Program-made: the position numbers and the translations under genes
The notes under the pieces: model-generated
Databases searched by the model: none
What the model was told of the DNA's origin: nothing
The model's input: the letters and a program-made list of their open reading frames with translations, nothing else
Virus record (IMG/VR): IMGVR_UViG_3300040801_001654
Span: 1-45,808 of that record
Length of the DNA stretch: 45,808 nt
Source: a virus
Strand: one strand, 5' to 3'
Shown: positions 11,350 through 43,475 of the stretch, piece by piece
Position numbering within the stretch: the stretch's first letter is position 1
Layout: every line of letters starts with the position of its first letter

Positions 11350-11930
11350 TTATCTTCCTTAAATAATTTATCTATCCACTCATCTGTGTAATCTAGTTCT
11401 TCTATCTCATAAGAACCATCCACTTGAAAGACTACAACTGCGAGGGGCAACTCTCTCTGTAGAGCGTACCTATACATACTCAACTGGTACTTAACCTTTC
11501 GTATCTTACTTGAACTACGCTTATAGTTACCCCTCCACGCACCATAGGTCTTCCAGTCCATCAGGTATTCTTTATCCTTATACTTTACAAGACCATCATA
11601 AGTTCCTGCGTATAGGTACTCATCACAATACACAGTCTCTTCTGCTTTTAATATCTCATACTTATCCATAAAGTCTTGTACCCCTTTGTATAATCCCTCC
11701 TCATTCTTACCTACTATAGGTGGGTCAAGGAACTCTGTATCCCTGACCCTATTATTTATCCAACTAGATACCTTAGTACCTATAGAGGAAGAGAGGGTGG
11801 TAACATCACTCGGCCTGTATCCATTCTCTTCACACCATCTCTTAAAAGATTCTTTGTTAAACGGAAACAGTTTACTTATTAAACTTGTAACCGAACAGTA
11901 CTTCTTATTGCCTCTCTCATAGTATCTCAT
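11325..11930 (-). CDS. PD-(D/E)XK family nuclease (RecB/Cas4/lambda-exo-like)
   Basis: GTYDGLV ... YLMDWKT gives a D...(D/E)xK arrangement. GGGAGGA SD upstream. Confidence 0.6.
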   Translation of the reverse strand: MRYYERGNKKYCSVTSLISKLFPFNKESFKRWCEENGYRPSDVTTLSSSIGTKVSSWINNRVRDTEFLDPPIVGKNEEGLYKGVQDFMDKYEILKAEETVYCDEYLYAGTYDGLVKYKDKEYLMDWKTYGAWRGNYKRSSSKIRKVKYQLSMYRYALQRELPLAVVVFQVDGSYEIEELDYTDEWIDKLFKEDKCQDQEQL

Positions 11931-11946
11931 CTTCCTCCCTGTTAAA

Positions 11947-12360
11947 TTAAAATGGTAGGTCGTTCTCTAAGTCTATCTCCTCATCAGGGTCGTTCCTTAT
12001 CTTACCCTTAGGTTTATTCTCTAGTCTTTCAATCTTTTCCTTAAGTTCTTTATTCTCTTTTTCTAACTCCTCAATCTCTTGCTTAAGGTTTCTTCTTGGT
12101 AGTTCAAAGTTCCACCAATCTCCGTCGTGAATTATCTTACCTGATATCTCAGTACCCTCATCCCAGTCATCAGTAACATTATCAAAGTCTAGCATTGACA
12201 ATCTACCATTGAACTCCATGTCATCTATACAGTTACTGTCCACCTCAAGTAGTACTTTCTTAAAAGGATTACCGTTCTTCGTTACCAACGGCGACCCATC
12301 TTTCTTAGTATTGTACGTACTAATACTCTCTATCTTAACATCTTTAATATTGTATTCCAT
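11947..12360 (-). CDS. Putative single-stranded DNA-binding protein (SSB-like acidic tip)
   Basis: C-terminus DPDEEIDLENDLPF resembles the bacterial SSB DDDIPF tip. The N-terminal ~90 aa are beta-rich. Lies in the recombination/replication block. Confidence 0.4.
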   Translation of the reverse strand: MEYNIKDVKIESISTYNTKKDGSPLVTKNGNPFKKVLLEVDSNCIDDMEFNGRLSMLDFDNVTDDWDEGTEISGKIIHDGDWWNFELPRRNLKQEIEELEKENKELKEKIERLENKPKGKIRNDPDEEIDLENDLPF

Positions 12361-12664
12361 TTTCTTTTAATAAGTCTCTTAATTTATATATTTCTTCTGA
12401 GGCTTTCTTTAACTTAACCTCATATTCTTTAGCAAGTTTTACTTGTAACTTACTAAGCACCTCTGACTGCCCATCAGATATCTCTGCTTGTAGTTTATCA
12501 AAGTAGTCATTGGCTACTAACTTCATTTGTTTCATGAGGGTTCTATGAACCTCCTCCCAGTCTTCATCTGAAGTATCAAACTCTAACTCAAGCCCAACCT
12601 CCTCGTTGGAGAAGGATATCCCCTCAATTGGGGCTTTGATAAAGAATCTTGGTTTGATTACCAT
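12344..12664 (-). CDS. Hypothetical protein
   Basis: 106-aa ORF in the operon orientation. Confidence 0.55.
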   Translation of the reverse strand: MVIKPRFFIKAPIEGISFSNEEVGLELEFDTSDEDWEEVHRTLMKQMKLVANDYFDKLQAEISDGQSEVLSKLQVKLAKEYEVKLKKASEEIYKLRDLLKENGIQY

Positions 12665-27798: not shown

Positions 27799-30135
27799 AT
27801 GGCTAAAATATTAAGTGAGAGTCTCTTAGAATACCTAGACGGGCCTTCTGAGGACTATAATGCAGACTATAAGGTCTGGGCAAATAAAGAAGAGTGGAAG
27901 TTAGTAGGAAAAATTAGGTCTAGGATACAGGAGATGTATAATGCTAGACAAAATACCTGCTACCTCATAAACTATGATGGTTCAAAGAGCTGGGATGCTC
28001 ACTGGAACCTATTGGAGAAGGATTACTTGATGTATTCGGAGTTCGGTAACGAAGACGACTGGAGGAGTAACCTTAAGTCTAGTATTGCTTACAGAACTAT
28101 AGCATCTTTAGATTCTAAAGAGAGAAAACAAGAAGTAGACTTTATGGTTGAGGCGAGTAATGAGTCTGACGAGTCTAAGGGTAGGGCTATTGTATATAGG
28201 TATATGTATGAGGACTACTTTAGAAGAAACCCAGACATAAGATACAAATTCTTAGAGGTTTCTAAGAGGGCAAAGATATTTGGAACTTCAATAGCGTATA
28301 TACCCTATACGATTAAGATGCGCAAGGTTTCTATGCCAGAAGTTACGGACGTAAGTGAGGATGATATAAAAAATGGTGAGTTACCAGAGATAGAATATAA
28401 GGACAAGTATATTGTGGATTATGAGGATGCTGATTTACTACCCTGGAATATACAAGACTTTTACGTAGACCCTAATGCAAGAAGTATACACGGTACGGAC
28501 CACCCAGCAACAGACGTGGCTGGTATATTATACGTTACAGAGTCTCAGGTTAGAATGATGTTTCAAGGAGACCCTGCAGTTAAGAACCTTGATAAGATTA
28601 AATCAAACAACGACCAGTCTTACGCTTCACCATTTTTCTCCCCCCCTAGGGATACCGAGAGGGGCTACGGAGAATTGGTTTATTACTACAATGTAGAGAC
28701 GGACAGTGAGGTTATCATGTATGGGGATGTTCTACTTAAAGAGGGTCCTATTCCTTATCAGGATAAGAAGATTCCCTTTGTAGACTTTAGGTTTATCAAA
28801 CATCCAGGACATTTTTATGGAATGGGGGTTGGTGATATAACTATACAGCAGTCTTCAGAGGAGTCTGCACTTAAGAACTCTAGACTAGACAGGGTTAAGT
28901 TTACAACTACACCTCCTACATTTGTTGGAGCAACAATCTTTGGAGATGTTGATGACCAGTGGGATACTATGGAACCTAATATGTTGGTTAAGGTTGGTGA
29001 CGTAAGCCAGGTTAAACCACTAGAGTTTCCACCTATTCCTTTTGATTCTTTCAGAATTTCTGAAGAGCTTAAGGATGAGGCTGTTATGAATACAGGTATT
29101 AACCCACACGGTATGTCACTACCAATGAGCTCAACACCAGCAACCAATACTATTGCAATGAAAGAAACCGCCAGTGATATGGCAAATATGTATGCAGACA
29201 ACTTGATGGAGGGTATGGGACATTGGGGAGAACTACTTGGTAGTAGGTTCTCACAGTTCTATTCAACACCTTCAAGGAAGTCTTCATTGGAGTATGATAA
29301 GAAGGAAATGAGAAAATTAAGACTAGAGGATATAGACCTTTATAAAGACGACGATGGTAATTATAACTACAGAGAAGTTAAAGGTTCTAAAATTATTCCA
29401 CTAGAAAAGGAAATGTTTAACTGGGACGGTGAGCCTAGAATATATGTTAACCCCGACTTTATAGCTCCTTTATCAGGAACCTATAGAATGAGGAAAGCGC
29501 AAGAGGTACTACCTCAGTTAGTACAATTAGCTGGAGATAGGGGAATGCCTATGGCTAACGGAGCACCAGCAGTTATTGATATAAGAAAACTCGTAAGGTG
29601 GTTCTTGGAGGAGATGGAAATGTCTGACCAAGACTTAATCCTTGATGAGGATGAGGATAGAATAGAAGAGATTAAAGAGGCACAAGAACAACAGCTTAAG
29701 ATGCAAGATGGTGAACAGGTGGCGGGAATACCAGGTGAACCACTAGCGCATAGGTATACACACGCCGTTGAGTTAAGGAGACTTAACGATGCAATAGGTT
29801 CTGAGGACTATCAATTGATAGTACAATCCCCAGACCCACAGATGCAGGCGTTTGTAGTAGCAATGGATGAATATAGAAAACAATTGACAGAGCACTTGAG
29901 GTTAGATAACCTCCTTCAGCAGGATGCCCCAGAAGCCTCTGTGGCAGATTCTGACGCCGTTTCACAGGCAATGAGCGGTGGAATGGGGGGTGGTATGCAA
30001 ATGCCACGTAACAACGCAGTTAACATTCCCACGGTAAGTGGTAACCAAGGGTTGCCTAACCAGGGTGGAATGCCCGTACCTAATAAGATGGGTGTAGAGG
30101 ATGTAACTGGACAGATAGCAGGTACAGCAATTTAA
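27799..30135 (+). CDS. Portal protein
   Basis: 778 aa. Lies after the terminase and before the scaffold and capsid genes. C-terminal Gly/Met/Gln-rich tail. The call rests on position and size. Confidence 0.65.
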   Translation: MAKILSESLLEYLDGPSEDYNADYKVWANKEEWKLVGKIRSRIQEMYNARQNTCYLINYDGSKSWDAHWNLLEKDYLMYSEFGNEDDWRSNLKSSIAYRTIASLDSKERKQEVDFMVEASNESDESKGRAIVYRYMYEDYFRRNPDIRYKFLEVSKRAKIFGTSIAYIPYTIKMRKVSMPEVTDVSEDDIKNGELPEIEYKDKYIVDYEDADLLPWNIQDFYVDPNARSIHGTDHPATDVAGILYVTESQVRMMFQGDPAVKNLDKIKSNNDQSYASPFFSPPRDTERGYGELVYYYNVETDSEVIMYGDVLLKEGPIPYQDKKIPFVDFRFIKHPGHFYGMGVGDITIQQSSEESALKNSRLDRVKFTTTPPTFVGATIFGDVDDQWDTMEPNMLVKVGDVSQVKPLEFPPIPFDSFRISEELKDEAVMNTGINPHGMSLPMSSTPATNTIAMKETASDMANMYADNLMEGMGHWGELLGSRFSQFYSTPSRKSSLEYDKKEMRKLRLEDIDLYKDDDGNYNYREVKGSKIIPLEKEMFNWDGEPRIYVNPDFIAPLSGTYRMRKAQEVLPQLVQLAGDRGMPMANGAPAVIDIRKLVRWFLEEMEMSDQDLILDEDEDRIEEIKEAQEQQLKMQDGEQVAGIPGEPLAHRYTHAVELRRLNDAIGSEDYQLIVQSPDPQMQAFVVAMDEYRKQLTEHLRLDNLLQQDAPEASVADSDAVSQAMSGGMGGGMQMPRNNAVNIPTVSGNQGLPNQGGMPVPNKMGVEDVTGQIAGTAI

Positions 30136-30151
30136 TTTAGTATTTAGTATT

Positions 30152-30400
30152 ATGAGCAGAAAGGCAGAACAAAAAGCAGCTCGAAAAAGAATAGCTGAAA
30201 TGACTAAAACAGAGGGGTGGGTAGACTTCAAAAAACTATTACCCGAGTATGTGAACAGTATTTATCAAGAGATTATGTTAGCTGATAAGGCAGACCCAGA
30301 CTTGATGGCAGCCTTGTCATATAAGCTTAAATACAGTGTTCAGGTTATGACAGTACTCTTCGATGAGTGTGAGAAAATGAGAGAGGACCTTGACAACTAG
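30152..30400 (+). CDS. Hypothetical protein
   Basis: 82-aa ORF. Confidence 0.5.
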   Translation: MSRKAEQKAARKRIAEMTKTEGWVDFKKLLPEYVNSIYQEIMLADKADPDLMAALSYKLKYSVQVMTVLFDECEKMREDLDN

Positions 30401-30419
30401 GTGCGTCCTATAGTATAAT
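30390..30419 (+). promoter_or_regulatory. Promoter TTGACA-N18-TATAAT for the scaffold/capsid genes
   Basis: TTGACA 30390-30395, CCTATAG directly abutting TATAAT 30414-30419. Confidence 0.6.
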
Positions 30420-30442
30420 GTAGGTAGACAGAAGATTATTAG

Positions 30443-30484
30443 GTTGGTTGTACAATAACAACCAACTTATATAGCCTTTTGGCT
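30443..30484 (+). promoter_or_regulatory. Structured 5' leader: a 9-bp hairpin plus a short AGCC-tttt-GGCT hairpin
   Basis: GTTGGTTGT (30443-30451) pairs with ACAACCAAC (30458-30466). AGCC (30473-30476) pairs with GGCT (30481-30484), followed by GTTT. Confidence 0.4.
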
Positions 30485-30508
30485 GTTTAAATTCTTTAAT
30501 AATATAAT

Positions 30509-31408
30509 ATGGCAGAAGTAGAACAAAACACTTCGGACCCCTTAGAGGAGACTCAAGTTGAGGAACCCAAGGTAACTCCAGAAGAAACTACAGAACCTTC
30601 CCCCACCCCTGAGAGTGGTAACGAAGGAGTACAAGAAGAGTCTCAGGAACAAGAGAATGTCGACTGGAAGAAGAGATACAGCGACAGTTCACGTGAGGCG
30701 TCTAAGTTTAAAGAGACAGCCGAGCAAAACCAGAAAGAGTTACTAACATTTGTAACTCGTAACAGGGACACTTTTGAGCAATACGTTGATTCGAAAGGCC
30801 TCCCTCCTATGGAGAAGGAGCGTTATATGAATATCTATGATACTCAGATAGCTCCAAGTGCAAATGCTTCCACAAGTGAAGCAGCCAAGGGAGTAACAGG
30901 CGAACTTGAATCAGGTAGTTCTCCATCCAAAGAGCAGGCTGCTCCTAATAAGCCTGTCGACCCCGTAAGGCAGTCGTGGATGAACAGAATGGACATGCAA
31001 GAGAGGGAAAAGATTGAGGAGCAATCGAAGGCAACAATGGAATTTTTTGAGAGAGAAGAAAATAAGGCTTTGCCTTATAATATTCAAGAAGCCATTAGGT
31101 CAACCGCTGCGATGTTGGACCAAGAGTTTGGTTACAAGCCAGCAGATGCCCTATCGGTGGCGAGAAAGAGACTATTAGAGCCAGAGGCTTTGAGAGATGA
31201 AGGCTACAACCAGGGAGTCAAAGATTCTATGGTAGGCGGTGTGAATCGAGGATTCACAGGTAGTAATGCTAAAGAGAAAGAGCAGATTAAACTACCCGCC
31301 AAAGATGAGGCTTATGTTTCATTTGAAATCCAGAGAAAAGGGCTCAAGGGAGATGAAGCCGAAAAATATAGAAAAGCATACGCCGAGAGATTGGCAATGA
31401 AAAACTAG
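30509..31408 (+). CDS. Putative scaffolding protein
   Basis: 299 aa, acidic, helix-rich and low-complexity. Located between the portal and capsid genes. Confidence 0.5.
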   Translation: MAEVEQNTSDPLEETQVEEPKVTPEETTEPSPTPESGNEGVQEESQEQENVDWKKRYSDSSREASKFKETAEQNQKELLTFVTRNRDTFEQYVDSKGLPPMEKERYMNIYDTQIAPSANASTSEAAKGVTGELESGSSPSKEQAAPNKPVDPVRQSWMNRMDMQEREKIEEQSKATMEFFEREENKALPYNIQEAIRSTAAMLDQEFGYKPADALSVARKRLLEPEALRDEGYNQGVKDSMVGGVNRGFTGSNAKEKEQIKLPAKDEAYVSFEIQRKGLKGDEAEKYRKAYAERLAMKN

Positions 31409-31430
31409 TTAATTTAAGAACAATGCAACA

Positions 31431-31967
31431 ATGTTTATTGTTAAATATGCAGATGGTGCATCTAGCAGGCCATACGAAAGAATACCAGTATTAAATAGTG
31501 GTGTTGTCTTTTTTAATGGTCCTGTTAAGTTAGTCGCAGGTGGTGTTGATGGTGCAGACGCAGTTTCAGATTCTATTTATGGACTCTGTAAAGGTGTTAT
31601 GATGGAGGGTGGAAGTACCCCATTAGAGAATGCACTTGATGATTCACACGACGGAACACTAACCTCTACAAACTTCACAGCCGCTTCAGATAACCAAACT
31701 GTTGAGACTGTTGTAGCTTTAGTAGAGCCAATTTTGCCTGGTGATATAATCAGGGCAGAAATGGATAACACCCTCGGAACCACAACTGGTTCAAATTTAG
31801 TAGGGTATTATGTAGATGTATTAACATCGGATGAGAGAAAGCTCGATGAGAGTAATACTCACGCAACAAACCAGCTCCAATTTTTAATAGTTGGGCAACC
31901 AGGAAAGGGTAACTATGTAGATGTTAAACTGGTAGAAAACCAGATGAACGGAAACGTAGGAGGCTAA
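31431..31967 (+). CDS. Head-module protein (decoration or accessory candidate)
   Basis: 178-aa ORF directly upstream of the capsid gene. No motif recognised. Confidence 0.5.
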   Translation: MFIVKYADGASSRPYERIPVLNSGVVFFNGPVKLVAGGVDGADAVSDSIYGLCKGVMMEGGSTPLENALDDSHDGTLTSTNFTAASDNQTVETVVALVEPILPGDIIRAEMDNTLGTTTGSNLVGYYVDVLTSDERKLDESNTHATNQLQFLIVGQPGKGNYVDVKLVENQMNGNVGG

Positions 31968-32006
31968 TCCTATACGAATATTTAAATTTAATGTTTATTT
32001 GTAATC

Positions 32007-33008
32007 ATGGCTATGAATACAGGTAGCAAGCCAGAGCTAACAGCACCAGGAGTTGAGGTTTGGATTCAAGAAGAAGCTGACAATGTAATGATAGATTCAT
32101 TACTCAGTAAAGTATTTACTGTTGAAACAACCAGTAGATTATATGAAGACGACTCAAGTTGGGCTGGAATAGACTACCCAGAATTAGTTGGGGAGGCTGC
32201 AAGTTCACCAGAAGACGACCTATTAATAGGTTATACCTGGAGGTATGAACTAAATACATATAAGAGAAAGATGGCTATAACCAGCCTACTTAACAAGACT
32301 GACTTATATAGTATTGCGAAGGCTGAAGAGATGTCTAGAGAGCTAGCTAAGAAAGCTGCTCAGGGTAGAGAAATTAATGCGTTCTCTGTTCTTAGAAATG
32401 CATTTGATTCTGATTATGTATATGGCGACGGAATGCCATTAATCTCCGTACAGCACCCTCGAAAGGATGGTGGCTCTGCACAGAGAAATACATTTTTAGA
32501 TGGCGTACAAGACTCTTTGTCTTATGACGCACTTAAAGACCTTGAAGATGTAATGTATGAGGTTTTCTCTAACAAGGGAATTCCTCTAAGCATCGGTTTA
32601 GATTCTAAACTAATGTTGATTGTAACCCCTTACAATAGGGAACAAGCACTACAAATCGCAGAGGCAGATATGATTCCAGGAAGTGTTGACGAGTCCGTTA
32701 ACTACTTCAAAGGTAGAAACCTTGATGTCTTAGTATGTCCTTATATTAGTTGGAGATTTGCTTACACCACTGGTGAAACAAGCTCTACTGATAGGGCCAC
32801 CTATGACGAAAGATTCTTTCTTATTGACCCTTCATTTGCTAAGAAGATGTTGAAGTTTAAACAACTTCAGAACTTCGAAGTGAAAGCTTGGGAAGATGAG
32901 GATACCGACGTTATGTATGCTAAGGTAGCAGACGTATACGCTTACGGAATCTCAGGTTGGTTCGGAATAGTAGGTTCACTCGGAGACGGGACAACTTACA
33001 CCAGCTAA
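32007..33008 (+). CDS. Major capsid protein
   Basis: 333 aa. Follows the scaffold gene and has a hairpin after its stop. The call rests on position and size; I cannot verify the fold. Confidence 0.65.
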   Translation: MAMNTGSKPELTAPGVEVWIQEEADNVMIDSLLSKVFTVETTSRLYEDDSSWAGIDYPELVGEAASSPEDDLLIGYTWRYELNTYKRKMAITSLLNKTDLYSIAKAEEMSRELAKKAAQGREINAFSVLRNAFDSDYVYGDGMPLISVQHPRKDGGSAQRNTFLDGVQDSLSYDALKDLEDVMYEVFSNKGIPLSIGLDSKLMLIVTPYNREQALQIAEADMIPGSVDESVNYFKGRNLDVLVCPYISWRFAYTTGETSSTDRATYDERFFLIDPSFAKKMLKFKQLQNFEVKAWEDEDTDVMYAKVADVYAYGISGWFGIVGSLGDGTTYTS

Positions 33009-33026
33009 TCATGGTAAGGTTTTTGG

Positions 33027-33045
33027 GGGTGTACCTTAAACACCC
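33027..33045 (+). terminator. Hairpin after the capsid gene (GGGTGT-accttaa-ACACCC)
   Basis: 6-bp stem 19 nt past the stop. A T-run precedes the stem rather than following it, so its role is uncertain. Confidence 0.25.
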
Positions 33046-33119
33046 TCACCCGAATAACTAAGTTGACTTCACGGGAAAATGAAGGAAAACAGATTAGTTT
33101 AATTTAAAAGAATACTAAA

Positions 33120-33737
33120 ATGAGTGATAGATTTCACACATCACAACCAATTGATTGTGGTGGATTAAAAATAAATGGTACTGAGGTTATTACCTCAGCA
33201 GGTGCTATTACAGCTGACATACAGGCTACAGCGGGTTCTATTGATACAGCAGAGTTAGCAGATGACGCTATTACTGCTGCAAAGATTGACGATGGTGCAG
33301 TAGGTAGTGCAGCTATAGCTGACAGTGTATTAAAGGTTGATAAAGTAACCTTAACCGCTGACGAAATAGTAGGGACAGACGCTGGTGACATAGGTCATGC
33401 AAGTGGAGCAACCCTAGTAGCCGCACCAGGAGCAGGTAAAGTATTAGAGTTCGTTAGCGCAGTATTATCATATACACACGACACAGCCGACTATACAGGC
33501 GGTGGTGATGATAACGTAATTCAATTGGGTACAACTACAGTAAGTCCAGCAATCGCTGGGGCAGACCTCTTAGAGGCCTCTGGAGATAAGATAGCTCAAG
33601 TTACCGCTTTAGGTGACGCAGATGTAGCATTAACTGCTAACTCTACGCTTAACCTACACGGTACAGCTTTAACGCAACCAGGTACAGCAGCAGGTACACT
33701 AGACGTATTTATTACATATAGAGTACATACGTTATAA
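33120..33737 (+). CDS. Ala/Gly/Thr-rich virion protein with short (A)I(T)..KI.DGAV-type repeats
   Basis: SAGAITADIQATAGSIDTAELADDAITAAKIDDGAVGSAAIADSVL. Confidence 0.6.
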   Translation: MSDRFHTSQPIDCGGLKINGTEVITSAGAITADIQATAGSIDTAELADDAITAAKIDDGAVGSAAIADSVLKVDKVTLTADEIVGTDAGDIGHASGATLVAAPGAGKVLEFVSAVLSYTHDTADYTGGGDDNVIQLGTTTVSPAIAGADLLEASGDKIAQVTALGDADVALTANSTLNLHGTALTQPGTAAGTLDVFITYRVHTL

Positions 33738-33766
33738 GACAGGATTTAAGATATAAATAGAATACA

Positions 33767-34141
33767 ATGAGAAAAGTTATAAAAGTTTTAGACGAAGTAA
33801 CTGCAACAACCACAGCAAATCCTGTTAATATTCTAGGAGCTAAAAGGGTCACTCTCTTATGTAAGAGAGCTGACCATAGCTCTGGAAGTTCTACGTTCAC
33901 CGCTCAGGTGGGTGTAGGTACTGACCTGGCTGATTACAAGAGGTGGGACTCCAATGTTACACACACGAATGTTCAGTACGACACGTCGGTCGATGAGTTG
34001 GTGCTTAGTGCAGACGGAGTTGACTTTCTTTCAATGAGTCCTAAGGACATATTTGAAGTAATACAGGTTAAGGTAACAGAGGCTACTGATGGAACACACA
34101 GTGCTTGGTTAATAATAGATTATGAAGACGATAATAAATAA
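33767..34141 (+). CDS. Virion-module protein
   Basis: 124-aa ORF. Confidence 0.55.
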   Translation: MRKVIKVLDEVTATTTANPVNILGAKRVTLLCKRADHSSGSSTFTAQVGVGTDLADYKRWDSNVTHTNVQYDTSVDELVLSADGVDFLSMSPKDIFEVIQVKVTEATDGTHSAWLIIDYEDDNK

Positions 34142-34159
34142 GTTAATTAATATACAATA

Positions 34160-34711
34160 ATGGCTTTAACACAAACTTGGGAATTACAAGGTACGGCAGA
34201 CACAACCATAGAGGCAACTGATTTGATTCAGTTCTCTGATGGAACCTTTGACAACCCAATAACAGTGAGTTCCTATAATGACGGAACACACGTAAGAAGC
34301 TCAGGTGGTGCTGACGACTCTGACGGTAATACTCCTAACAATGTAAAATATATTGCTAGTGGTACAGGAGACTGGGGAGATGGTACGGAGTCTTTGACTT
34401 CAATCACAGATGGTGAGTGTACACTTAAGCTCACGGTAAGTGAGTCTTCAAGTATTACAGTAACTGACATAAGTTTTTATGCTTATGATGGTTCTACCAC
34501 AACCAATGCACCCTCAGGAATGACGGTTCAGGCATTTGAGAGTGGAGACTCAGCTTGGACACAGATACACGGCTCAGGGAATGCACTGTCAGTAACTGAC
34601 AGCGATACACCTGCAACAGACCACTACTTCTATATAGGTCTTAGTGCAAGTCCTTCTAGTGTAGGGGTTAAGAGTGCTAACAAGGTAAGAGTAGAGTTTA
34701 CTTACCAATAA
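34160..34711 (+). CDS. Virion-module protein
   Basis: 183-aa ORF. Confidence 0.55.
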   Translation: MALTQTWELQGTADTTIEATDLIQFSDGTFDNPITVSSYNDGTHVRSSGGADDSDGNTPNNVKYIASGTGDWGDGTESLTSITDGECTLKLTVSESSSITVTDISFYAYDGSTTTNAPSGMTVQAFESGDSAWTQIHGSGNALSVTDSDTPATDHYFYIGLSASPSSVGVKSANKVRVEFTYQ

Positions 34712-34746
34712 AATAGAATTTAATTTATAACATCTGGGGAGAGGTT

Positions 34747-35184
34747 ATGACATTACCAGAGAACAAGGTACATTTCGCTGTTGGTTTATCTAACGGAGAC
34801 AATTTAATAGAAGGAGAAGGAATACTTCTTAAAGTTGATGGGGAGGATTCTCCCTGGCACAAACTCCAAAAATATATTCAAGATAAAGACCTAGAGATTA
34901 GGTCTATGTCGCTTTACTCTAAGACAGAGGTAGGTAACAGACACTATCACTTACCCAACGCAAGTCCTAAGTTTAAAGGAGAAGCTCCTAAGGGGTTTAA
35001 ATTCTTTAGGTGGGTTGCTATGGAGGGTTTAGCAGGAGAGACTTTAGTAGAGCACTATGCAGTTGCTGAAGCTATTTTTGAGGATTACAAGGCACAATTA
35101 TGGGTCAGTGAATTAGACCCAGACAAGTGTTGGGTAAATTTGGTTCAGAATAAAGGTGGCAGAAAAGAAACAGCAGGGAGCTAA
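34747..35184 (+). CDS. Virion-module protein
   Basis: 145-aa ORF with a GGGGAGAGG SD. Confidence 0.6.
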   Translation: MTLPENKVHFAVGLSNGDNLIEGEGILLKVDGEDSPWHKLQKYIQDKDLEIRSMSLYSKTEVGNRHYHLPNASPKFKGEAPKGFKFFRWVAMEGLAGETLVEHYAVAEAIFEDYKAQLWVSELDPDKCWVNLVQNKGGRKETAGS

Positions 35185-37807
35185 GATATCAATTAAAGAC
35201 TTTAAATTAAAAGAGGACTCTCAGTCCTTATATAAAGTTGTTAAAAACAACCCTAAAGATAAGATAGAAGTAGAGTTAGGAGATAGTAAAGACTCCTCAA
35301 AAATATATCCTCAAGCGAAGATTATGCGTTGGAATAATGAGGTTAATCTGTCAGTTAGGTATAAAGATGACGATACAGACCCAGAAGTTAAGTCAGAAGG
35401 TGGTATTCTTAAATGGGTTAAACCTGACAAAGAAGTTCATATTTACGAGAAGCCAGAGGTAGCAGAGGATGGTGGACTTGAGATAGAGGTTGTTTTAAAA
35501 GAAAAACCTGTTAGTAATGTAGTAGAGTTTTCTGTTGAAACAAATGGGTTGGACTTTTTCTATCAGCCAGAATTAGAAGATAGTGAAGTAGAGGAGATTG
35601 TTAAAAGAGAAAAAATATCTATTGAAGAGGCAAAGAGGAAGTGTAGACCAGAAAATGTGGTTGGTTCTTACGCTGTATATTACACAGAGAAACAAGGGAA
35701 TTATCCTGATGTTGAATATAAGACAGGTAAGTTTTGTCATATATACAGACCCAAAGTAACAGATGCAGAAGGTAAAGAGGTGTGGGGTGAGTTAAATATA
35801 GACGAAGATAAGGGTATTTTAACTGTAACTATTGACCAGAAGTTTTTAGATACTGCTATCTATCCTATATTGGTTGACCCTACCTTTGGATATACAAGTG
35901 AAGGGGGGAGTTATGACGGTAGTGATGGAGAAGATGTTATGAGGGGGTCAGAGGGCACATCAGCTAATAGTGGAACAGTAGACAAGGTTTCAGTATATTT
36001 GGCACCTGGACCATCAGATACTAGTTGGAAGCCAATTATATTGAACTCTAGCCACGAAATAATTTCAGACGGTATTGGTGATGTTGCTAATTTCGGGTAT
36101 GGTGGACCAAGTTGGAATGATTTACCGTATACTACAAACCCATCTATTAGTGCGACAGACTATTATATTTGTTGGATTCGTGATGGTTACCAGCAAACTG
36201 AAGTTTGGTATGATACGGGCTCATATGGTGATGGATTCAAAGATACAGGGAACAGTTATTCTTCGCCTACAGACCCAACGGTTGATACTACTAATAAAAT
36301 CCACTCCATCTATGCCACCTATACAGAATCGGCAAGTGGAACTGAAGCAGATAGTGAACGAAGTCTTTATATAGAGGGTTGTAATACTGATGATTCGGAA
36401 AGGGGTTTATATATACAAGGGCAGAGTAGTAGTAATTCCGAAATGAGTTTATATTTAGAAGGGTCACCTGTAACTAGCGAACGTTCTCTATATATTAAGG
36501 GTGTTGATACAAGCAACTCGGAAAGAACTCTATATATGCAAGGACAATTAACTAATAACTCAGAGCGAGGACTCTATACGGAAGGTCAGATTTCTAGTAA
36601 TTCAGAGAGGGGTCTGTATTTAAGTGGAATTGATACAAGCAGTTCGGAGGGGTTATTATACATACAAGGACGAAGCTCAAATACTTCGGAACATAATATA
36701 TATATAGAAGGGTGTATTGGTAGTAATTCTGAAAGAGGAATATATATTGCAGGTAAACCAGCATCATCAGAAAGGGGTTTATACTTAATAGGCCAAACTT
36801 GGGGTGAGAGAGGTCTATATATAGAAGGTGAGGGAGGAGGAAACTCTGAGAGGGGTCTTTATATTAAGGGCATAGATACTGCAATCTCAGAGAGAAACCT
36901 TTATACCCAGGGTAAGTTAGAAGATACTTTGGAGAGAGGGCTATATACTAAAGGAGTTGCTTATAGTGAGTTAGAGAGGAAGTTATATATCCAGGGTAAA
37001 ATATCTACCAGCTCCGAACATGGATTATATATATCTGGTAAGATTAGTGAAGACTCTGAAAGAGGGTTATATATATGGGGAAAGAAGACCTCTTTGTCCG
37101 AGAGGCACTTATACTTAGAGGGTCAGCCAGTTACAGGAGAGAGGGGTCTCTATATAGAAGGTTTTGATACGGGTAATAGTGAGAGAGGTTTATACATACA
37201 GGGTAAACTCACTTCTAGTAGTGAGAGGTCTTTATATACTTGGGGTTCTAATAAGGGTAGTTCTGAGAGGAGCCTATATATATGGGGAGCTAATACATCT
37301 CAATTAGAGAGAAATATATATATACAGGGTAAGATACTAGGAGATTCGGAGAGGGGGTTATACCTACAGGGTGGACTTCCTGGGGATAGTGAGAGGACTT
37401 TATACTTAGAGGGAAAGATTAGTACCAGTTCAGAGAGACAGCTATATGCCTGGGGTATAGATACGGGTAGTTCAACAAGAAACTTATATATACAGGGTCA
37501 GAGTACAGGAAATTCAGAGAGAACCCTATACATAGAGGGGCGTATATTAGGGGACTCTGAGAGAGGTATATACATAAAGGGAATAGACACAGGTTACTCG
37601 GTAAGAGGTTTATACATAAAAGGTTCTGTCTGGTATGAGAGGGGAATTTATACCCTCGGTGGATACCCCTTGTGGACTGATAATACAACATCGGTTGCTA
37701 GTGAACTATCAGACAACTCTACAGAAACCAGCACGGAATGGGTTGACAAATCTGTAGAATATGGTACAATATATAGTAAGGAGACAACTACTGTGAGTCC
37801 TGGCTAG
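35156..37807 (+). CDS. Tail fibre/spike protein with a 437-aa tandem-repeat shaft
   Basis: 883-aa ORF with a GTG start that overlaps the previous gene by 29 nt. The C-terminal half consists of SER(G)LYI.G repeats. Confidence 0.75.
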   Translation: MAEKKQQGAKISIKDFKLKEDSQSLYKVVKNNPKDKIEVELGDSKDSSKIYPQAKIMRWNNEVNLSVRYKDDDTDPEVKSEGGILKWVKPDKEVHIYEKPEVAEDGGLEIEVVLKEKPVSNVVEFSVETNGLDFFYQPELEDSEVEEIVKREKISIEEAKRKCRPENVVGSYAVYYTEKQGNYPDVEYKTGKFCHIYRPKVTDAEGKEVWGELNIDEDKGILTVTIDQKFLDTAIYPILVDPTFGYTSEGGSYDGSDGEDVMRGSEGTSANSGTVDKVSVYLAPGPSDTSWKPIILNSSHEIISDGIGDVANFGYGGPSWNDLPYTTNPSISATDYYICWIRDGYQQTEVWYDTGSYGDGFKDTGNSYSSPTDPTVDTTNKIHSIYATYTESASGTEADSERSLYIEGCNTDDSERGLYIQGQSSSNSEMSLYLEGSPVTSERSLYIKGVDTSNSERTLYMQGQLTNNSERGLYTEGQISSNSERGLYLSGIDTSSSEGLLYIQGRSSNTSEHNIYIEGCIGSNSERGIYIAGKPASSERGLYLIGQTWGERGLYIEGEGGGNSERGLYIKGIDTAISERNLYTQGKLEDTLERGLYTKGVAYSELERKLYIQGKISTSSEHGLYISGKISEDSERGLYIWGKKTSLSERHLYLEGQPVTGERGLYIEGFDTGNSERGLYIQGKLTSSSERSLYTWGSNKGSSERSLYIWGANTSQLERNIYIQGKILGDSERGLYLQGGLPGDSERTLYLEGKISTSSERQLYAWGIDTGSSTRNLYIQGQSTGNSERTLYIEGRILGDSERGIYIKGIDTGYSVRGLYIKGSVWYERGIYTLGGYPLWTDNTTSVASELSDNSTETSTEWVDKSVEYGTIYSKETTTVSPG
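36353..37663 (+). repeat. About 32 in-frame tandem repeats of 36-42 nt (consensus peptide SERGLYIxGxxxxx)
   Basis: Counted by eye in the translation, from SERSLYIEGCNTDD to ERGIYTLGG. Confidence 0.9.
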
Positions 37808-37854
37808 GAGGATGAAGAGGTTGATTCAACAGATAATTTTACTAATGAATACTA

Positions 37855-39474
37855 ATGGCAAAAAGCCTTAATAGAGAAAAATATACGATGCGAAGGTACG
37901 ACCTTATGGGTAGTATGAAGCAATCTACTAACCCCTTTCTTATGAACGACAACGAGTTTACTTATTTAAGAAATATATCTTACGACGAGATAGGTTCTGT
38001 TAGTAAGGACGGAGGGTATACTCAGCTTGGTGCTGACCTAGACGCTTCGGGAGCTATTGATTTACTGCACGATTATGTTGATTCGGACGGACAGCATAAT
38101 CTTTTGGCAATATCTAATGGTAAGATTTATAAGTATGACTCAGGTTCTTGGACAGAGATAACTCAGTTTAACGACTGGGTCACAGACAGTGAGGCAGATG
38201 CTGACACCACCTCTGGTTCTGAAAGGGTTTTGTATTTAGAGGGGGACGGGAGTTTGTTTACTGCAGACACAAAAAGTTCGGCTGTTAATAGAAATGGAAC
38301 GGCTTATATAATAAACGAGCTGGACGGATTGTGGTATACGGATGGTAACTCAATGACCTCCGTTAAAATAGATAATGGAGGCTCAGAGGTGTTGGCAAAG
38401 TATATGACCGTGGTAAATGGAGAACTCTATATTGCAAATTGTTCTGGGGTACACAGTGCAAACAACGTGGTTTATACCGCAGGTGGTGGACAAACCTTTT
38501 ATGTACCTTCGGAGGAGGACCATGACACATACGCCACAACCAACAACATAATAACGGTTAATGATGCAATAACAGGTATAACAGGATTCCAAGGTACGGT
38601 TATATTCTTTACGGAGGAGTCTATGTATCTCTTTAACCCACAGAATGCCGAGGTTGTAGAGATAGCAAGTATAGGGTGTACAGACCATAATTCTATACAG
38701 GAAATTAATGGAGTTTTATATTGGATTAACAGGGATGGTGTATACAGGTTTAATGGGGAAAATATTCCAGAACTTATATCACTACCAATAGTAAACTGGG
38801 CCACCAATTCTTTATGGAGACTTATAGATGGGGGAAGTTGGGGAGACAACCCAGCAGTTAGCTTTGAGGGTAAGTATATGGTTTATGTAGGAGATATGGC
38901 AGGTACTATGCCAGGAGACACGGGTGCGTTGTCAGATATAGTGCTGGTATATGATACATATAGAGATGTGTGGTACTTTTTGACAGACTATCCAGTAAGG
39001 TTAATGACCAGGTTTGTTAATAGTGACGGCAACTTAAGGTTAATGATGGGAAGTAAGGATGAGGCGGCAGTGTTCCAAAAGGGCTATACTTATACCTCAG
39101 ACGGGAGCGCTATAACGATGGTTGTAAGAACAAAATACTTTAACTTTGATATGCCTGAGAACGAAAAGGTTTTCAGTGATTTCTTGGCTACATATAGGCC
39201 AGAGGGGGAGTCAGAAAAATACTTAACGGTTAAGATTGCTACCAATGGTACTAACAATTATGAGGAAATTATAGGGAGTACTACCAATACTAAATTAGAA
39301 CTAGATGGGGTTGCAGGAACAGAGTTTCAGTTAGAGAGAGCTGCCCTTAAAGGAACAAGGGGTAGGACATTGTCTTATGAGTTTAGCAATAGTGACTCAG
39401 GAGTCAATGTGACCCTATTAGGGTATACACAACAGTACAGGTACATGAATAATAATATGAACTTTTCAGGATAA
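37855..39474 (+). CDS. Tail structural protein (nozzle/tubular or baseplate-like)
   Basis: 539-aa ORF in the tail module. No motif recognised. Confidence 0.55.
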   Translation: MAKSLNREKYTMRRYDLMGSMKQSTNPFLMNDNEFTYLRNISYDEIGSVSKDGGYTQLGADLDASGAIDLLHDYVDSDGQHNLLAISNGKIYKYDSGSWTEITQFNDWVTDSEADADTTSGSERVLYLEGDGSLFTADTKSSAVNRNGTAYIINELDGLWYTDGNSMTSVKIDNGGSEVLAKYMTVVNGELYIANCSGVHSANNVVYTAGGGQTFYVPSEEDHDTYATTNNIITVNDAITGITGFQGTVIFFTEESMYLFNPQNAEVVEIASIGCTDHNSIQEINGVLYWINRDGVYRFNGENIPELISLPIVNWATNSLWRLIDGGSWGDNPAVSFEGKYMVYVGDMAGTMPGDTGALSDIVLVYDTYRDVWYFLTDYPVRLMTRFVNSDGNLRLMMGSKDEAAVFQKGYTYTSDGSAITMVVRTKYFNFDMPENEKVFSDFLATYRPEGESEKYLTVKIATNGTNNYEEIIGSTTNTKLELDGVAGTEFQLERAALKGTRGRTLSYEFSNSDSGVNVTLLGYTQQYRYMNNNMNFSG

Positions 39475-40511
39475 TGGTATCTGGAATATACGACAGTAAA
39501 GGAAAGCCGATTAAGACGACTTTTCCTACAATAGAAAATAGAATGTATGATACCGTTATAGGTTCTTTAGATGTGGCTTCAAAAGCAGGTGCCCCTGCTA
39601 CAGGTGGAAAGGGAGTACTCGAGAACAGGGTAGGGCAGAGTACTTTTATAGGAACGATTAGTGTAAAGGATAACGGGGGCACTGAAAAGGTTCGCATGGG
39701 TAAAATAGGCGTAGGGGAGTGGGGCTTAACGGTGTATGATGGTAACCTTATTGGTGGAACTATAGAGATAGGAGATGGGGACGATTCGTTCTTTGCAGAT
39801 GAAACAGGTATATGGGCAGGGGATGAGGATTTTGATGATGCACCATTTAGTGTTGATATGCAGGGTAACCTAATAGCCACTAGTGGAACTATAGGGGACT
39901 TTACCATAGAAAGTGATAGGTTGTATGGAGGAACTTTGTCAACTGCAAGGACTGTGTCGGCAGGTAGTACTGGTGTTATAATGGATACGGCAGGGCTAAG
40001 GGGTTATGACTCTGTATTGGGAAAGACCTTTGATTTGCCAACAGATGGCAGTGCGCCAGAGTTTAGTAGTGGTATAATTAAAGAGACTATATTTGAATTA
40101 CAAACGAGTTCAATTATTAGGACGTCAGAAACTGTAGGGGATGGTACCTCAGACAGTGATGGTGTGTTAATGAATGACACTGGTATATACGCCTGTACTA
40201 CTAACCAGAGCCTAGCCAATGCTAACGTAAAAATACTAGCATCAGGTGAGGCTACGTTTAGTGGTAGTGTCAAGGGTGGTATGACAGACTTTATGACTGG
40301 CACGGGGTATTTCTTAGGAGAGAGTGGCGGTGTATATAAATTCAGTATTGGTGACCCTAGTGGTAATCACCTATCTTGGGATGATGAGTACTTAAGGGTA
40401 AAGGGTAATATAGAGCTTACGTCACCACTAACTAACATAGGTTATGCGTTCGCCAGTTTACCAATACCACCAACAACGGTAGGGTTTAATAGTCCAAGTA
40501 GTAATAGTTAA
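39474..40511 (+). CDS. Tail fibre-like protein
   Basis: 345 aa, Gly/Thr/Ser-rich. ATG overlaps the upstream stop (TAATG). Confidence 0.55.
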   Translation: MVSGIYDSKGKPIKTTFPTIENRMYDTVIGSLDVASKAGAPATGGKGVLENRVGQSTFIGTISVKDNGGTEKVRMGKIGVGEWGLTVYDGNLIGGTIEIGDGDDSFFADETGIWAGDEDFDDAPFSVDMQGNLIATSGTIGDFTIESDRLYGGTLSTARTVSAGSTGVIMDTAGLRGYDSVLGKTFDLPTDGSAPEFSSGIIKETIFELQTSSIIRTSETVGDGTSDSDGVLMNDTGIYACTTNQSLANANVKILASGEATFSGSVKGGMTDFMTGTGYFLGESGGVYKFSIGDPSGNHLSWDDEYLRVKGNIELTSPLTNIGYAFASLPIPPTTVGFNSPSSNS

Positions 40512-40527
40512 TATTTAATAAGAGAAG

Positions 40528-42669
40528 ATGGCAAATTTAATATACAGTTATACAAGTTATACAGCAGACCTTTACTTCTATGGGTCTTCGGTTAAATCTG
40601 CACAGTCCTTTACTGTACCTTCTGGGTATACGAGGATTGCTTATGTACAGTTATACCAGAAAAGAGTTGGTTCTCCAGGGTATACGGAAAGGGTGGGTAT
40701 TCACAGTAATTCTGGTGGGAGACCTGGTACAGAGCTTATAGGAATTAATGTGAGTACTAATAGTTTAAGTACCTCACTCACTTGGAATACTTATAACTTC
40801 TCGGACTGTACCGTAACTCCAGGTGGTACATATCACGTTAATGCGGGACCGTTTGGTCCAAGTTCAAGTAATATTATTGAATGTAGTTATGGTACCACAG
40901 GTAGTGGCTTATCTCTTTACTACTACGATAGTGGTTCTTATTCTTGGCATACTAATTATGGTTCTTATGATAATATGCTTGTTAAGGTATACGGCTATGG
41001 GCCCCCAGCAAGTTTAGGTGCTACTACTACTAGCAGTGTTGGAGAGACAAGCTTCTATGCCTCCTCAAGTGTGGGGAATGATATGGGTGCGAGTGTGTCA
41101 GAAAGAGGTTTCTGTTATTCTACGAGTGATACAACCCCTGACACAGGAGACTCTAAAAAGGTTGTAGGTTCTGGAACAGGTAGTTTTGGGTCCACAATTA
41201 CGGGTCTTTCTGCAGGTGTAACTTATTATATTAGAAGTTATGCCATTAACGCAGCGGGTACAACTTACGGTGCTGTTAAAACACAGACTACGGATACTAA
41301 TCCACCCAGTGTAACAACTGGTTCAGTTAGTAATTTAGACAAGTTCTCTGCTACAGTATCAGGTGAGGTAACCAGTGCACACGGAGCAACAGTAACTACT
41401 AGGGGTATATGTTATAACACGAGTGGTACACCTACCACCTCAAGTTCTAAGGTTTCCAGCGGTAGTGGTGTAGGTTCTTATTCTTGTAATCTTACAAGCC
41501 TAAGCGCGAACACTACTTACTACGCAAGGGCATATGCTACCAACAGTCAGGGTACTAGTTATGGTGGACAGATTTCTTTTACCACACTAAAGGCTGCCCC
41601 AACAGTAACAACCTCTTCAGTAACCAACCTCCTTGATGTGACGGCCACACTTGGTGGTAATGTTACAGATACAGGGGGGAGTACTGTTACAGAAAGGGGT
41701 GTGGTTTATGCTACTTCGTCAAACCCCACCACGTCTGATAATAAACTTGATACTACGGGTACAACAGGTTCTTACACGGTTAATGCTACAGGTTTAACGC
41801 CTGCTACTACCTACCACTGTAGGGCCTATGCTATTAATGCTTATGGTACTGCATACGGTAGTGACGTAGAGTTTACTTCAGAGCCAACAGAACCAAGTTC
41901 ACTAGATATTGAGATAACAGGTAAGACCACCTCAACACTTACATGGACAAAAGGAACAGGTGCAGACACAACGGTTGTTAGGAGAGCTACTGGCTCTTAC
42001 CCAACAGGACCCACAAATGGAACAGGGGTATACAGTGGTTCGGGTGTCACAACCAATGATACAGGACTCACCGCAGGGACAACCTACTACTATAGGATTT
42101 GGTCTTTAGACGGTGCCAGTAATTACAGTACTGATTACGATTCGGCTACAGACACTACGGACTACGCCTTTACTAACCCAACAAATGCATACAGTGATAA
42201 CAGCACCTATACTACAGCACCAGCTAATGACGATAGTATATATATAAAGCTTAGCAAGGATGGTGGAACTACCTGGCATAATGAAATAGAGGCAACCCTG
42301 CCAGCAGCTAACGGAGAGGTTACCTTTGGGGACGAAGATGAGGAGTTGTGGGGGTATACGTGGACAGGAGACGATGTGGATGATACAAGCTTTGCTATGA
42401 TGGTAACGGTAGGTTCAGATAAAACGTCCTACCATATTCTAGAGGATTTTGGGTTCTCAATTACAAGTACGTACATTCTTACGGGAATAGAGGTGGTGGT
42501 TAAGGGGTATTTTGACACGGACACTGCTTATATAGACCACGTTAAAATGAAAATACATTATGGTACTAGTGTCCTTCCAATAGTAGCAGGGACACAGGCG
42601 TATGACAGCACTAATAATACTATGGTATTCTATGACGGAACGCAGTGGCAGAAGGTGGCAACGGTATAA
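40528..42669 (+). CDS. Receptor-binding-type tail protein (three Ig-like repeats plus an FN3-like domain)
   Basis: 713 aa with three ~97-aa repeats carrying the pattern V.ERG..Y.TS..P......K......G.GS....L.GL.....YY.R.YA.N..GT.YG. A TWT...YYYRIW FN3-like unit follows. Confidence 0.65.
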   Translation: MANLIYSYTSYTADLYFYGSSVKSAQSFTVPSGYTRIAYVQLYQKRVGSPGYTERVGIHSNSGGRPGTELIGINVSTNSLSTSLTWNTYNFSDCTVTPGGTYHVNAGPFGPSSSNIIECSYGTTGSGLSLYYYDSGSYSWHTNYGSYDNMLVKVYGYGPPASLGATTTSSVGETSFYASSSVGNDMGASVSERGFCYSTSDTTPDTGDSKKVVGSGTGSFGSTITGLSAGVTYYIRSYAINAAGTTYGAVKTQTTDTNPPSVTTGSVSNLDKFSATVSGEVTSAHGATVTTRGICYNTSGTPTTSSSKVSSGSGVGSYSCNLTSLSANTTYYARAYATNSQGTSYGGQISFTTLKAAPTVTTSSVTNLLDVTATLGGNVTDTGGSTVTERGVVYATSSNPTTSDNKLDTTGTTGSYTVNATGLTPATTYHCRAYAINAYGTAYGSDVEFTSEPTEPSSLDIEITGKTTSTLTWTKGTGADTTVVRRATGSYPTGPTNGTGVYSGSGVTTNDTGLTAGTTYYYRIWSLDGASNYSTDYDSATDTTDYAFTNPTNAYSDNSTYTTAPANDDSIYIKLSKDGGTTWHNEIEATLPAANGEVTFGDEDEELWGYTWTGDDVDDTSFAMMVTVGSDKTSYHILEDFGFSITSTYILTGIEVVVKGYFDTDTAYIDHVKMKIHYGTSVLPIVAGTQAYDSTNNTMVFYDGTQWQKVATV
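41008..41880 (+). repeat. Three tandem ~97-aa domain repeats within the tail protein
   Basis: Aligned by eye: ...ERGFCYSTSDTTP..TYYIRSYAINAAGTTYG / ...TRGICYNTSGTPT..TYYARAYATNSQGTSYG / ...ERGVVYATSSNPT..TYHCRAYAINAYGTAYG. Confidence 0.8.
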
Positions 42670-42728: not shown

Positions 42729-43475
42729 ATGACACTCAGTGAAATCAGAAATGATGTTGGTTCTAAGATAAACCAATATAGCGATGAGACGGATACCTTT
42801 GTTGAGGGGTTTATAACAGAGACAGAGTTAGATAGGTGGATTAACCAAACCTTTGAAGAACTCTATATGTGGTATGCCTTAGCAAATAAGGGTAGATTCT
42901 CTACCAAGGCTACTGTTGATACAGTGGAAGACCAGGGAGTATATACTTTTGGTGGTGATGCTACCGACCTACTTGCCGTAGAAAGCGTGGGCATAAAGTA
43001 TTCTTCAGACGATGATTACTATAAGACCGCTTACCCTAACACTCCAAAAAGATTTTACTTAGAGGGAGGAGAAGAGGCAGCAGAAGGTGCCCCTATGTAC
43101 TTTGAAAGACAGATATACGACAGTGTAAATGAGGAGTATGTATTAGCAATAGAGTTTCCAGAGGACTGTATACCAGACACAGCCGTTACAGACGGACTTC
43201 AAATGTGGTATATTGAGAGACCACCAGAGCTATCAGGAGACACAGACGAACCACAAAAGTTACCTAAAGAACTACACAAATACATAGTAATAGGAGCTTC
43301 AATACCAGCCCTGGAAAAGATGGGTGAGTATGACCAGGCTGCTTATTTAGAGGGAAAGTTTAACACCAAGGTTAAATCGTTCTTTATACAGGACCAGACT
43401 AAAACAGCTAAGGGGGTTAAAGTTGTTAAACCAACAAGGGAAAGCATTAATAAGTTTTATAAGAGAATACGATAA
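42729..43475 (+). CDS. Virion-module protein
   Basis: 248-aa ORF. Confidence 0.6.
   Translation: MTLSEIRNDVGSKINQYSDETDTFVEGFITETELDRWINQTFEELYMWYALANKGRFSTKATVDTVEDQGVYTFGGDATDLLAVESVGIKYSSDDDYYKTAYPNTPKRFYLEGGEEAAEGAPMYFERQIYDSVNEEYVLAIEFPEDCIPDTAVTDGLQMWYIERPPELSGDTDEPQKLPKELHKYIVIGASIPALEKMGEYDQAAYLEGKFNTKVKSFFIQDQTKTAKGVKVVKPTRESINKFYKRIR

Follow-up and report, generated by a model that had tools for sequence, protein, structure and literature searches.

What kind of protein does a phage make from a gene half of which encodes short tandem repeats? This question is raised by the IMG/VR virus record IMGVR_UViG_3300040801_001654, positions 1 to 45,808 (one strand, 45,808 nucleotides, hereafter the window), which contains an open reading frame (ORF) for a protein of 883 residues. 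Phage fibres decide what a phage adheres to, yet only a handful of repeat folds have been described for their shafts. The original prediction, made from the sequence of the window, had proposed that about 32 repeats form half of a tail-fibre protein, probably a long, rigid trimeric shaft of a type not recognised from known fibre families. With a probability of about 0.6, we read the product as a modular phage surface fibre (stalk) protein: a beta-rich N-terminal module (N-module), a stalk of 32 units of an undescribed beta-type repeat and a conserved short tail, encoded within a mobile cassette and exchanging its heads at the array.

The tandem array was found as claimed. Its 32 consecutive units, delimited by the anchor [LI]Y..G, occupy residues 400-840, and at 441 of 883 residues it does make up half of the protein. 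Only the end had been misplaced: position 37663 cuts the last unit four residues short, and the array ends at 37675. The units were 14 residues long in 27 cases, 13 in three and 12 in two. Among the 27 regular units, Y6 and G9 were invariant, position 5 was always L or I, E2 was present in 26 and R3 in 24; position 7 was occupied by I, L or T, and positions 8 and 10-14 were variable. Residue autocorrelation at lag 14 was 0.42, compared with 0.088 ± 0.014 in 1000 shuffles (approximately 24 standard deviations), a periodicity far beyond chance.

At the DNA level, Tandem Repeats Finder detected no tandem repeat, even at a score of 30; the periodicity therefore exists in the protein only. Pairwise nucleotide identity of the 42-nt units averaged 52% (maximum 71%), the longest exact word they had in common was 15 nt, and identity at third codon positions was 41%. 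The units had been described as near-identical in DNA, which these values contradict. The conserved serine was encoded by both AGY and TCN codons, and this divergence indicates purifying selection on the protein. The array is old and held in phase by such selection.

Searches against described families were negative. Pfam, PHROGs and NCBIfam contained no family for the 883-residue protein, and no similarity to an annotated tail-fibre family was found in them; Pfam at E ≤ 10 gave only noise on the repeat region. In the PDB, no chain matched the protein, a 46-sequence four-unit profile or the family alignment at E ≤ 10. The N-module likewise had no family in Pfam, PHROGs, NCBIfam or PDB sequence and profile searches. 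The sole match in an annotated phage was a hypothetical protein, aligned over the N-terminal part only, and a literature search on a 14-residue fibre repeat and on DUF2341 in phages returned nothing relevant. The claim that the repeat type is unrecognised thus stood up against sequence, four-unit profile and fold comparisons, and the repeat belongs to a family not described before, which serves modular surface proteins of phages as a stalk.

To size this family, a profile built from the window's own units only was compared with 1.84 billion representative proteins, giving 256 representative clusters at E ≤ 1e-3 and 124 at E ≤ 1e-10; all family sequences came from uncultured phages. The N-terminal ~390 residues had at least 836 relatives with diverse C-termini, and the repeat region alone had 57, many with other N-termini. 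Domains joined to repeats included LamG with DUF2341, CE4 deacetylase, Gly_rich_2, FG-GAP and HINT, and further heads were BspA-type leucine-rich repeats (LRR) and sandwiches resembling carbohydrate-binding modules (CBM). The array is thus combined with heads of carbohydrate-binding or enzymatic type (LamG, DUF2341, CE4 deacetylase, LRR, CBM-like), and a head swap was seen between the window and its relative L008. The repeat itself occurred in several dialects (SERGLYIxG, SxRxIYTKG, xxRSAKITGKD, AERSAELHGED), all of which retained R3, a small or hydrophobic residue at position 5, a hydrophobic residue at position 7 and G9. The loop at 10-14 varied, as did position 6 (Y, K or E), whose side chain is probably exposed because it changes by dialect.

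Among the 140 proteins with at least three units, the number of units ranged from 3 to 56 (median 18), and a median of 380 residues preceded the array. The array ended within 80 residues of the C-terminus in 100 of the 140, and short tails recurred after it: WVDKSVEYG (as in the window), (K/R)YNGxxW three times, xPY..PY and WxxK. In the plan common to these proteins, a variable globular head is followed by the array and this by a short tail at the C-terminus. This plan, together with the strongly beta-type sequence pattern, fits the stalk or shaft role proposed earlier.

Some relatives carry further insertions. In P0016 and P0041, relatives of the N-module, the module is interrupted midway by a class I methyltransferase domain (PF08241/PF13649); it breaks off after '...FxxQPxxT' and restarts at '...ENVxGSYAVY'. 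P0124, which has the same tail as the window's protein, contains a HINT/intein-type insertion (PF07591, PF14890) in its small beta-sandwich, immediately ahead of the pre-array strand '...IKVYYTE'.

How heads are exchanged could be read from the related locus L008, which was 93% identical to the window in nucleotide sequence over 30001-35139 and 89% identical over 36724-39582 (blastn). Between these blocks the window has one fused gene, and L008 has a 355-residue protein (a small sandwich, three units and an AF_1625_C-type domain), a LAGLIDADG endonuclease ORF and a 962-residue protein (a DUF2341/LamG head and 38 units). Units 10-32 of the window paired one-for-one with the last 23 units of L008 at 71-100% identity, and the irregular units of 12 and 13 residues fell at matching places. 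Units 1-9, compared with the 15 upstream units of L008, showed only the background similarity seen between any units, so that the junction falls within the array, near nt 36724. Judged from this comparison, the array acts as a joint for recombination, where phages exchange their heads; the number of units is stable in orthologous stretches, and it is the whole head that changes. Near-identical units had also been expected to allow length variation by recombination. Recombination within the array does occur, exchanging whole N-terminal heads; variation of the slippage type is unsupported, because the DNA units have diverged and, at ~89% nucleotide identity, no unit was gained or lost across the 23 orthologous ones. 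Since the two phages have common structural genes, the C-terminal array and tail would be better candidates for the virion-proximal end than the head. Swapping of binding modules between close phages at conserved joints, including lectin-like and enzymatic domains, is familiar from the fibres of T4, T7, lambdoid and lactococcal phages; here, in contrast, the N-terminal head is swapped and the C-terminal array and tail are conserved, the joint is the repeat array, and two dedicated upstream genes travel with it.

These two partner genes, A and B (Table 1), were 43-72% identical to the gene pair that precedes repeat proteins in four other contigs, whose backbones are unrelated (SPP1-type or Phage_portal-type portals, P22-like or SU10-type capsid proteins, tape-measure-bearing tails); gene A retained 60-72% identity across unrelated phage backbones. 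Through gene A, 57 viral loci were retrieved, of which the 36 with at least 2.9 kb downstream were counted. In all 36, B came next, followed by one or two same-strand array ORFs, and no arrays were found elsewhere in these loci; ten of the cassettes encoded both a short-array and a long-array protein. When loci were instead ascertained by the array, with a degenerate DNA pattern for two units, A and/or B lay upstream in 9 of 9 evaluable cases, loci with incomplete upstream sequence not being counted. Clustering of all neighbouring ORFs left A and B as the only genes recurring across backbones. They were missing upstream of repeat-less N-module proteins, and the pair consequently goes with the array, not with the N-module. 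On this evidence of gene content, the array is part of a horizontally mobile cassette of A, B and one or two array proteins.

A and B showed no detectable relatedness to each other or to the sandwich preceding the array. The idea that A is a free-standing copy of this sandwich, suggested by the common ending ...(F/Y)TY(Q/E), was rejected (hhalign probability ≤0.2%). Homing-endonuclease ORFs occur inside the cassette: a LAGLIDADG-type ORF at L008:6800-7180, between two array genes, and an HNH/NUMOD3 ORF at L105:4787-5428, between A and B. They may promote mobility or mosaicism. A short-array protein, consisting of a head domain, 2-6 units and a ~150-residue AF_1625_C domain (PF27237), recurs beside long-array proteins in many cassettes (e.g., P0004-P0006, L008:5692-6768 and L105:5873-6847). 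The 205- and 124-residue genes between the capsid gene and A lie outside the mobile cassette and are conserved in SU10-like relatives only (64% and 33% identity in L002); the 205-residue protein gave a weak match to a PHROG 'tail fiber protein' over 45 residues.

The position of the cassette varies by backbone, homing-endonuclease genes sit inside it (L008, L105) and glycosyltransferase genes are often nearby, all of which would suit a moron-like accessory operon whose products stay out of the virion, such as a secreted or cell-surface adhesin or an enzyme made late in infection. We consider such an operon very unlikely: the cassette is always on the structural-gene strand in late modules, and the repeat is also present in tail-tip proteins and, as a matching unit within an insertion, in a virion structural protein.

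The full-length AlphaFold2 monomer model (113 sequences) reached a predicted local distance difference test score (pLDDT) above 90 over residues 10-390, which form two beta-rich domains. Foldseek returned local matches of probability 1.0 to CBM-like sandwiches, among them the CBM-bearing cement protein gp25 of cyanophage A4 and tail-tip and baseplate chains. This fold match is generic and silent on head versus tail location, and its assignment to one of the two N-terminal domains is inferred. The full-length Foldseek search was dominated by the low-confidence half of the model; the A4 capsid-cement match was dropped as a clue to location, the CBM sandwich being generic. In the BFVD, weak fold matches were obtained to phage proteins annotated as YadA-like (E 6e-5, very high root-mean-square deviation).

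For the repeats, a second monomer run used eight units and a gap-free, in-phase alignment of 50 segments. The model consisted of 11-residue strands joined by 3-residue turns at unit positions 12-14; the strand-turn-strand pattern at period 14 was seen in both AlphaFold2 runs and was consistent in four of the five models of the eight-unit run. Compared with the PDB, this model (pLDDT 65) gave a best, non-significant E of ~1; no fibre shaft was among its matches, a weak negative for a monomer model of this confidence, and the top ones were beta-solenoids (MpAFP 3p4g, hexapeptide-repeat proteins, CsgA). A beta-rich stalk is likely. The persistently modest confidence for so regular a beta repeat suggests a fold that may need oligomerisation or partners.

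The poor pLDDT of the full-length run and loops rich in Ser, Gly and Thr might alternatively indicate a flexible, largely disordered low-complexity linker without a defined fold. This is extremely improbable given the strict 14-residue phase, the invariance of R3 and G9 and hydrophobicity of positions 5 and 7 across distant dialects, the diverged codons of the conserved serine that mark purifying selection on the protein, the period-14 strands in four of five models and the internal coupling of the loop described below.

Covariation was calculated over 2,650 units. Loop positions 10-14 were very strongly coupled within the unit (Z up to 25). Between units, same-position coupling appeared at lag 2 (position 11, Z 6.1) and was absent at lag 1 (position 11, Z 0.5) and lag 3. 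Two loop classes tended to alternate along the arrays, with a lag-1 autocorrelation of −0.07 versus +0.065 ± 0.02 in the null. Together, the lag-2 coupling and the alternation indicate a two-unit (28-residue) structural period. Such a period would suit an antiparallel meander as well as a solenoid with two units in each coil, and argues against one unit per coil, as in YadA-like proteins, and one unit per face of a three-sided helix. A three-unit period, with one unit per face of a triple beta-helix, was rejected because lag 3 gave no same-position signal. Among the antidiagonals, even the strongest (i+j=18, mean Z 1.8) was too weak for building a register.

The same data bear on whether the array is instead a monomeric two-sheet beta-solenoid of beta-roll-like type, ~8 nm, with two 14-residue units in each 28-residue coil, rather than a trimeric shaft. 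Lag-2 coupling, loop-class alternation and the solenoids among the best, non-significant fold matches all point that way; if the units lay face to face, invariant R3 would oppose invariant G9, and L5 would oppose I7. As a rule, however, AlphaFold2 models monomeric solenoids with high confidence, and here pLDDT did not exceed ~65 even with a clean in-phase alignment. There are only two conserved hydrophobic positions per unit, and the C-terminal (K/R)YNGxxW motifs, present three times, look like putative fibre trimerisation hairpins. We regard the monomeric solenoid as rather unlikely.

Three known repeat structures are worth comparing with a fibre stalk of this kind. The triple beta-spiral of adenovirus fibre and reovirus sigma1 is likewise built from a beta-type repeat of ~15 residues with a conserved glycine and alternating hydrophobic residues, forms a stalk between anchor and head, and has its length set by copy number. 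The present repeat differs in its period of 14, its invariant arginine six residues before the glycine, the two-unit super-period indicated by covariation and an array that is usually C-terminal to a variable head, and there was neither a Pfam (E ≤ 10) or PDB sequence or profile match nor a fold match for the pLDDT-65 monomer model. The left-handed parallel beta-roll of YadA (trimeric autotransporter adhesins) has a period of exactly 14, as have 27 of the 32 units here, and an order of head, stalk and C-terminal anchor. Its motif, however, is of the NSVAIG type instead of xERxLYIxG, no Pfam YadA match was found, and its one unit per coil predicts lag-1 coupling, against the Z of 0.5 at lag 1 and 6.1 at lag 2 found here. 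The RTX beta-roll (nonapeptide GGxGxDxUx) places two short repeats in each coil of a two-sheet solenoid and so provides a precedent for the lag-2 signal. It is an analogy only: the sequences are unrelated, the present unit has 14 residues instead of nine, and it has no Ca-binding Asp/Gly motif.

Where on the virion would such a stalk sit? The order in the window is the repeat gene, a 539-residue virion structural protein, a 345-residue protein, a 713-residue protein rich in immunoglobulin-like (Ig) and FN3 domains, and the adaptor (Table 1). SU10-like relatives have a matching order, and in L103 and L104 the protein at the 713-residue position carries Collar and Gp10_C (+ fn3) domains. Repeat-less N-module proteins adjoin adaptor and nozzle-sized genes. 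The tail of SU10 (Kuravirus) comprises adaptor, nozzle, and long and short fibres that use an N-terminal coiled coil and T4-like tips, and the fibres attach to adaptor and nozzle (PMC9509320). The window resembles SU10 in its portal, its adaptor and a block of fibre or receptor-binding-type genes beside the adaptor; the 883-residue protein, by contrast, has no detectable similarity to SU10 gp12, gp13 or gp16. Gene order, the neighbours of N-module proteins and the attachment of SU10 fibres favour a tail location in this phage, which is likelier than a head location. In addition, 3-5 units are found inside 'tail protein' families, including the distal tail protein of L001 that follows the tape-measure gene. 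For the 713-residue protein itself, three partial matches (E 6e-24, far below cut-off) to the NCBIfam model of arabinan endo-1,5-alpha-L-arabinosidase BT0360 probably reflect shared Ig-like repeats; weak FN3 matches were also obtained.

Table 1. Features of the window considered in this analysis (positions in nucleotides of the window; aa, amino acid residues).
Feature	Position	Strand	Remarks
SU10-type portal	27799-30135		
gpT-like capsid protein	32007-33008		
205-aa protein	33120-33737		between capsid gene and A
124-aa protein	33767-34141		between capsid gene and A
Partner gene A, 183 aa	34160..34711	+	family without function by database search; upstream of array genes; 66 loci
Partner gene B, 145 aa	34747..35184	+	directly after A in every judged locus
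Stalk/fibre-protein ORF, 883 aa	35156..37807	+	GTG start; overlaps end of upstream gene by 29 nt
N-terminal module, aa 1-392	35156..36331	+	two beta-rich domains; last residues '...HSIYATYTE'; many different C-termini among relatives
Repeat array, aa 400-840	36353..37675	+	32 units; consensus S-E-R-G-L-Y-I-x-G-x-x-(T/S)-x-x
Mosaic junction, unit 9 / unit 10 boundary	36724..36730	+	blastn match resumes at 36724; unit-by-unit comparison
C-terminal tail, 43 aa	37676..37804	+	conserved motif WVDKSVEYGTIY; common to P0124, P0126, P0132, P0134 and the L008 and L104 fibres
Virion structural protein, 539 aa	37855..39474	+	downstream; phrog_3287; syntenic in L103, L104 and L105
Single unit SERVLYLEG in 539-aa protein	38218..38244	+	inside ~30-aa insertion
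713-aa protein	40528-42669		Ig/FN3-rich
SU10-type adaptor	42729-43475		

The siphophage loci tell a different story. There, the cassette is flanked either by portal, Mu-F, protease and capsid genes or by those for capsid and head-tail connector, and in ~18 L001-like loci it occupies the head block and does not follow the tape-measure, Dit and Tal genes. This position fits a head or neck fibre equally well, that is, a capsid decoration or whisker projecting lectin-like heads from the capsid in the manner of T4 Hoc, phi29 gp8.5 or SPP1 gp12; the resemblance of one domain to the CBM of gp25, the capsid cement protein of A4, would agree. A head or neck fibre nevertheless seems unlikely. Tail genes immediately adjoin the gene in the window and its SU10-like relatives, tail-tip proteins contain units of the repeat, the CBM-like fold matches tail-tip and baseplate chains as well, and the conservation of A and B across unrelated capsid types speaks against specific capsid binding by these two proteins. 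The term 'tail fibre' used in the original prediction is plausible, backed by the SU10-like gene order and the units in tail-tip proteins, but called into question by the head-module position in siphophages.

Several observations weigh against a modular surface fibre protein as we propose it. The full-length model had pLDDT of only 30-60 over the repeats and the eight-unit segment only 65, with a predicted template modelling score of 0.51; the hairpin register modelled by AlphaFold2 (i+j=12) was rejected for want of covariation support (mean Z 0.41). The AlphaFold check suggested earlier, carried out here as monomer runs only, therefore produced neither a confident shaft nor a sign of disorder, and to describe it as a rigid, trimeric shaft of a tail fibre is reasonable, yet unproven. 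In three siphophage backbones the cassette belongs to the block of head genes and is far away from those for tape-measure, Dit and Tal. The roles given to A and B are pure inference, as neither has a homologue in Pfam, PHROGs, NCBIfam or the PDB. Finally, the presence of the protein in virions is a prediction from genes of uncultured phages.

If the protein is nonetheless such a fibre, its array would form an extended, probably oligomeric beta structure with the two-unit period, and the stalk would hold a head of carbohydrate-binding or enzymatic type at a distance from the virion, most likely from its tail. Heads are exchanged between phages at the array joint, with the unit number of orthologous stretches left as it is, and A and B would be the array's own assembly factors or its structural partners. 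The repeat is a further uncharacterised shaft-type repeat, so far restricted to uncultured phages, and A and B are candidate fibre chaperones or partners of a new kind. A regular beta stalk tolerating head swaps and varying unit number would explain host-range modularity in this phage group, and might also serve as an adjustable-length scaffold for engineering receptor-binding proteins in laboratory phages.

The unit inside the 539-residue protein, SERVLYLEG, was the sole other motif match in the six-frame translation of the window (0.011 expected). The ~30-residue insertion that contains it was present in 4 of 24 family members of this protein, and all four carried a unit. In the two more distant of these carriers the insertion reads STRGIYVSG; the fibre beside one of them uses the dialect S.R.IY..G, and the window's fibre is of the SERxLY type. 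Loop and fibre dialects therefore match in both of the two lineages compared. The dialect-matched insertion (4/24) and the cassettes with both a short-array and a long-array protein hint that the repeat could be a self-recognising docking element, in which short arrays or single units displayed on the virion act as sockets for long-array fibres by beta-sheet extension. Candidate sockets would be the insertion in the 539-residue protein and those tail-tip and N-module proteins that carry 3-5 units. Counting against docking, L105 has the cassette and a fibre tail like that of the window, yet lacks the insertion; the insertion is consequently not obligatory, and its role as an obligatory 'socket' was rejected. 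Docking by self-recognition is doubtful and best taken as speculation. If true, podophages and siphophages that are unrelated could acquire the cassette whole, as a portable plug-in system for fibres, with A and B as dedicated assembly factors.

Few clues to the host were obtained. Gene A was found on phage-sized contigs in only four cellular-genome bins: two of Saccharibacteria/Patescibacteria (L065, L067), the others of Fermentibacteria and a gammaproteobacterium. One N-module homologue was labelled Kerfeldbacteria. Because binning of phage contigs is unreliable, this gives only a weak hint at the host of this phage group.

In phages bearing the cassette or the N-module, genes for glycosyltransferases, an epimerase and an aminotransferase are repeatedly found close to the structural genes (L001:2384-6325, L004:1724-3118, L005:605-1759, L006:473-1138 and 11820-12371, L007:959-2934). 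Virion glycosylation, perhaps on the Ser/Thr-rich repeat loops, would be a possibility.

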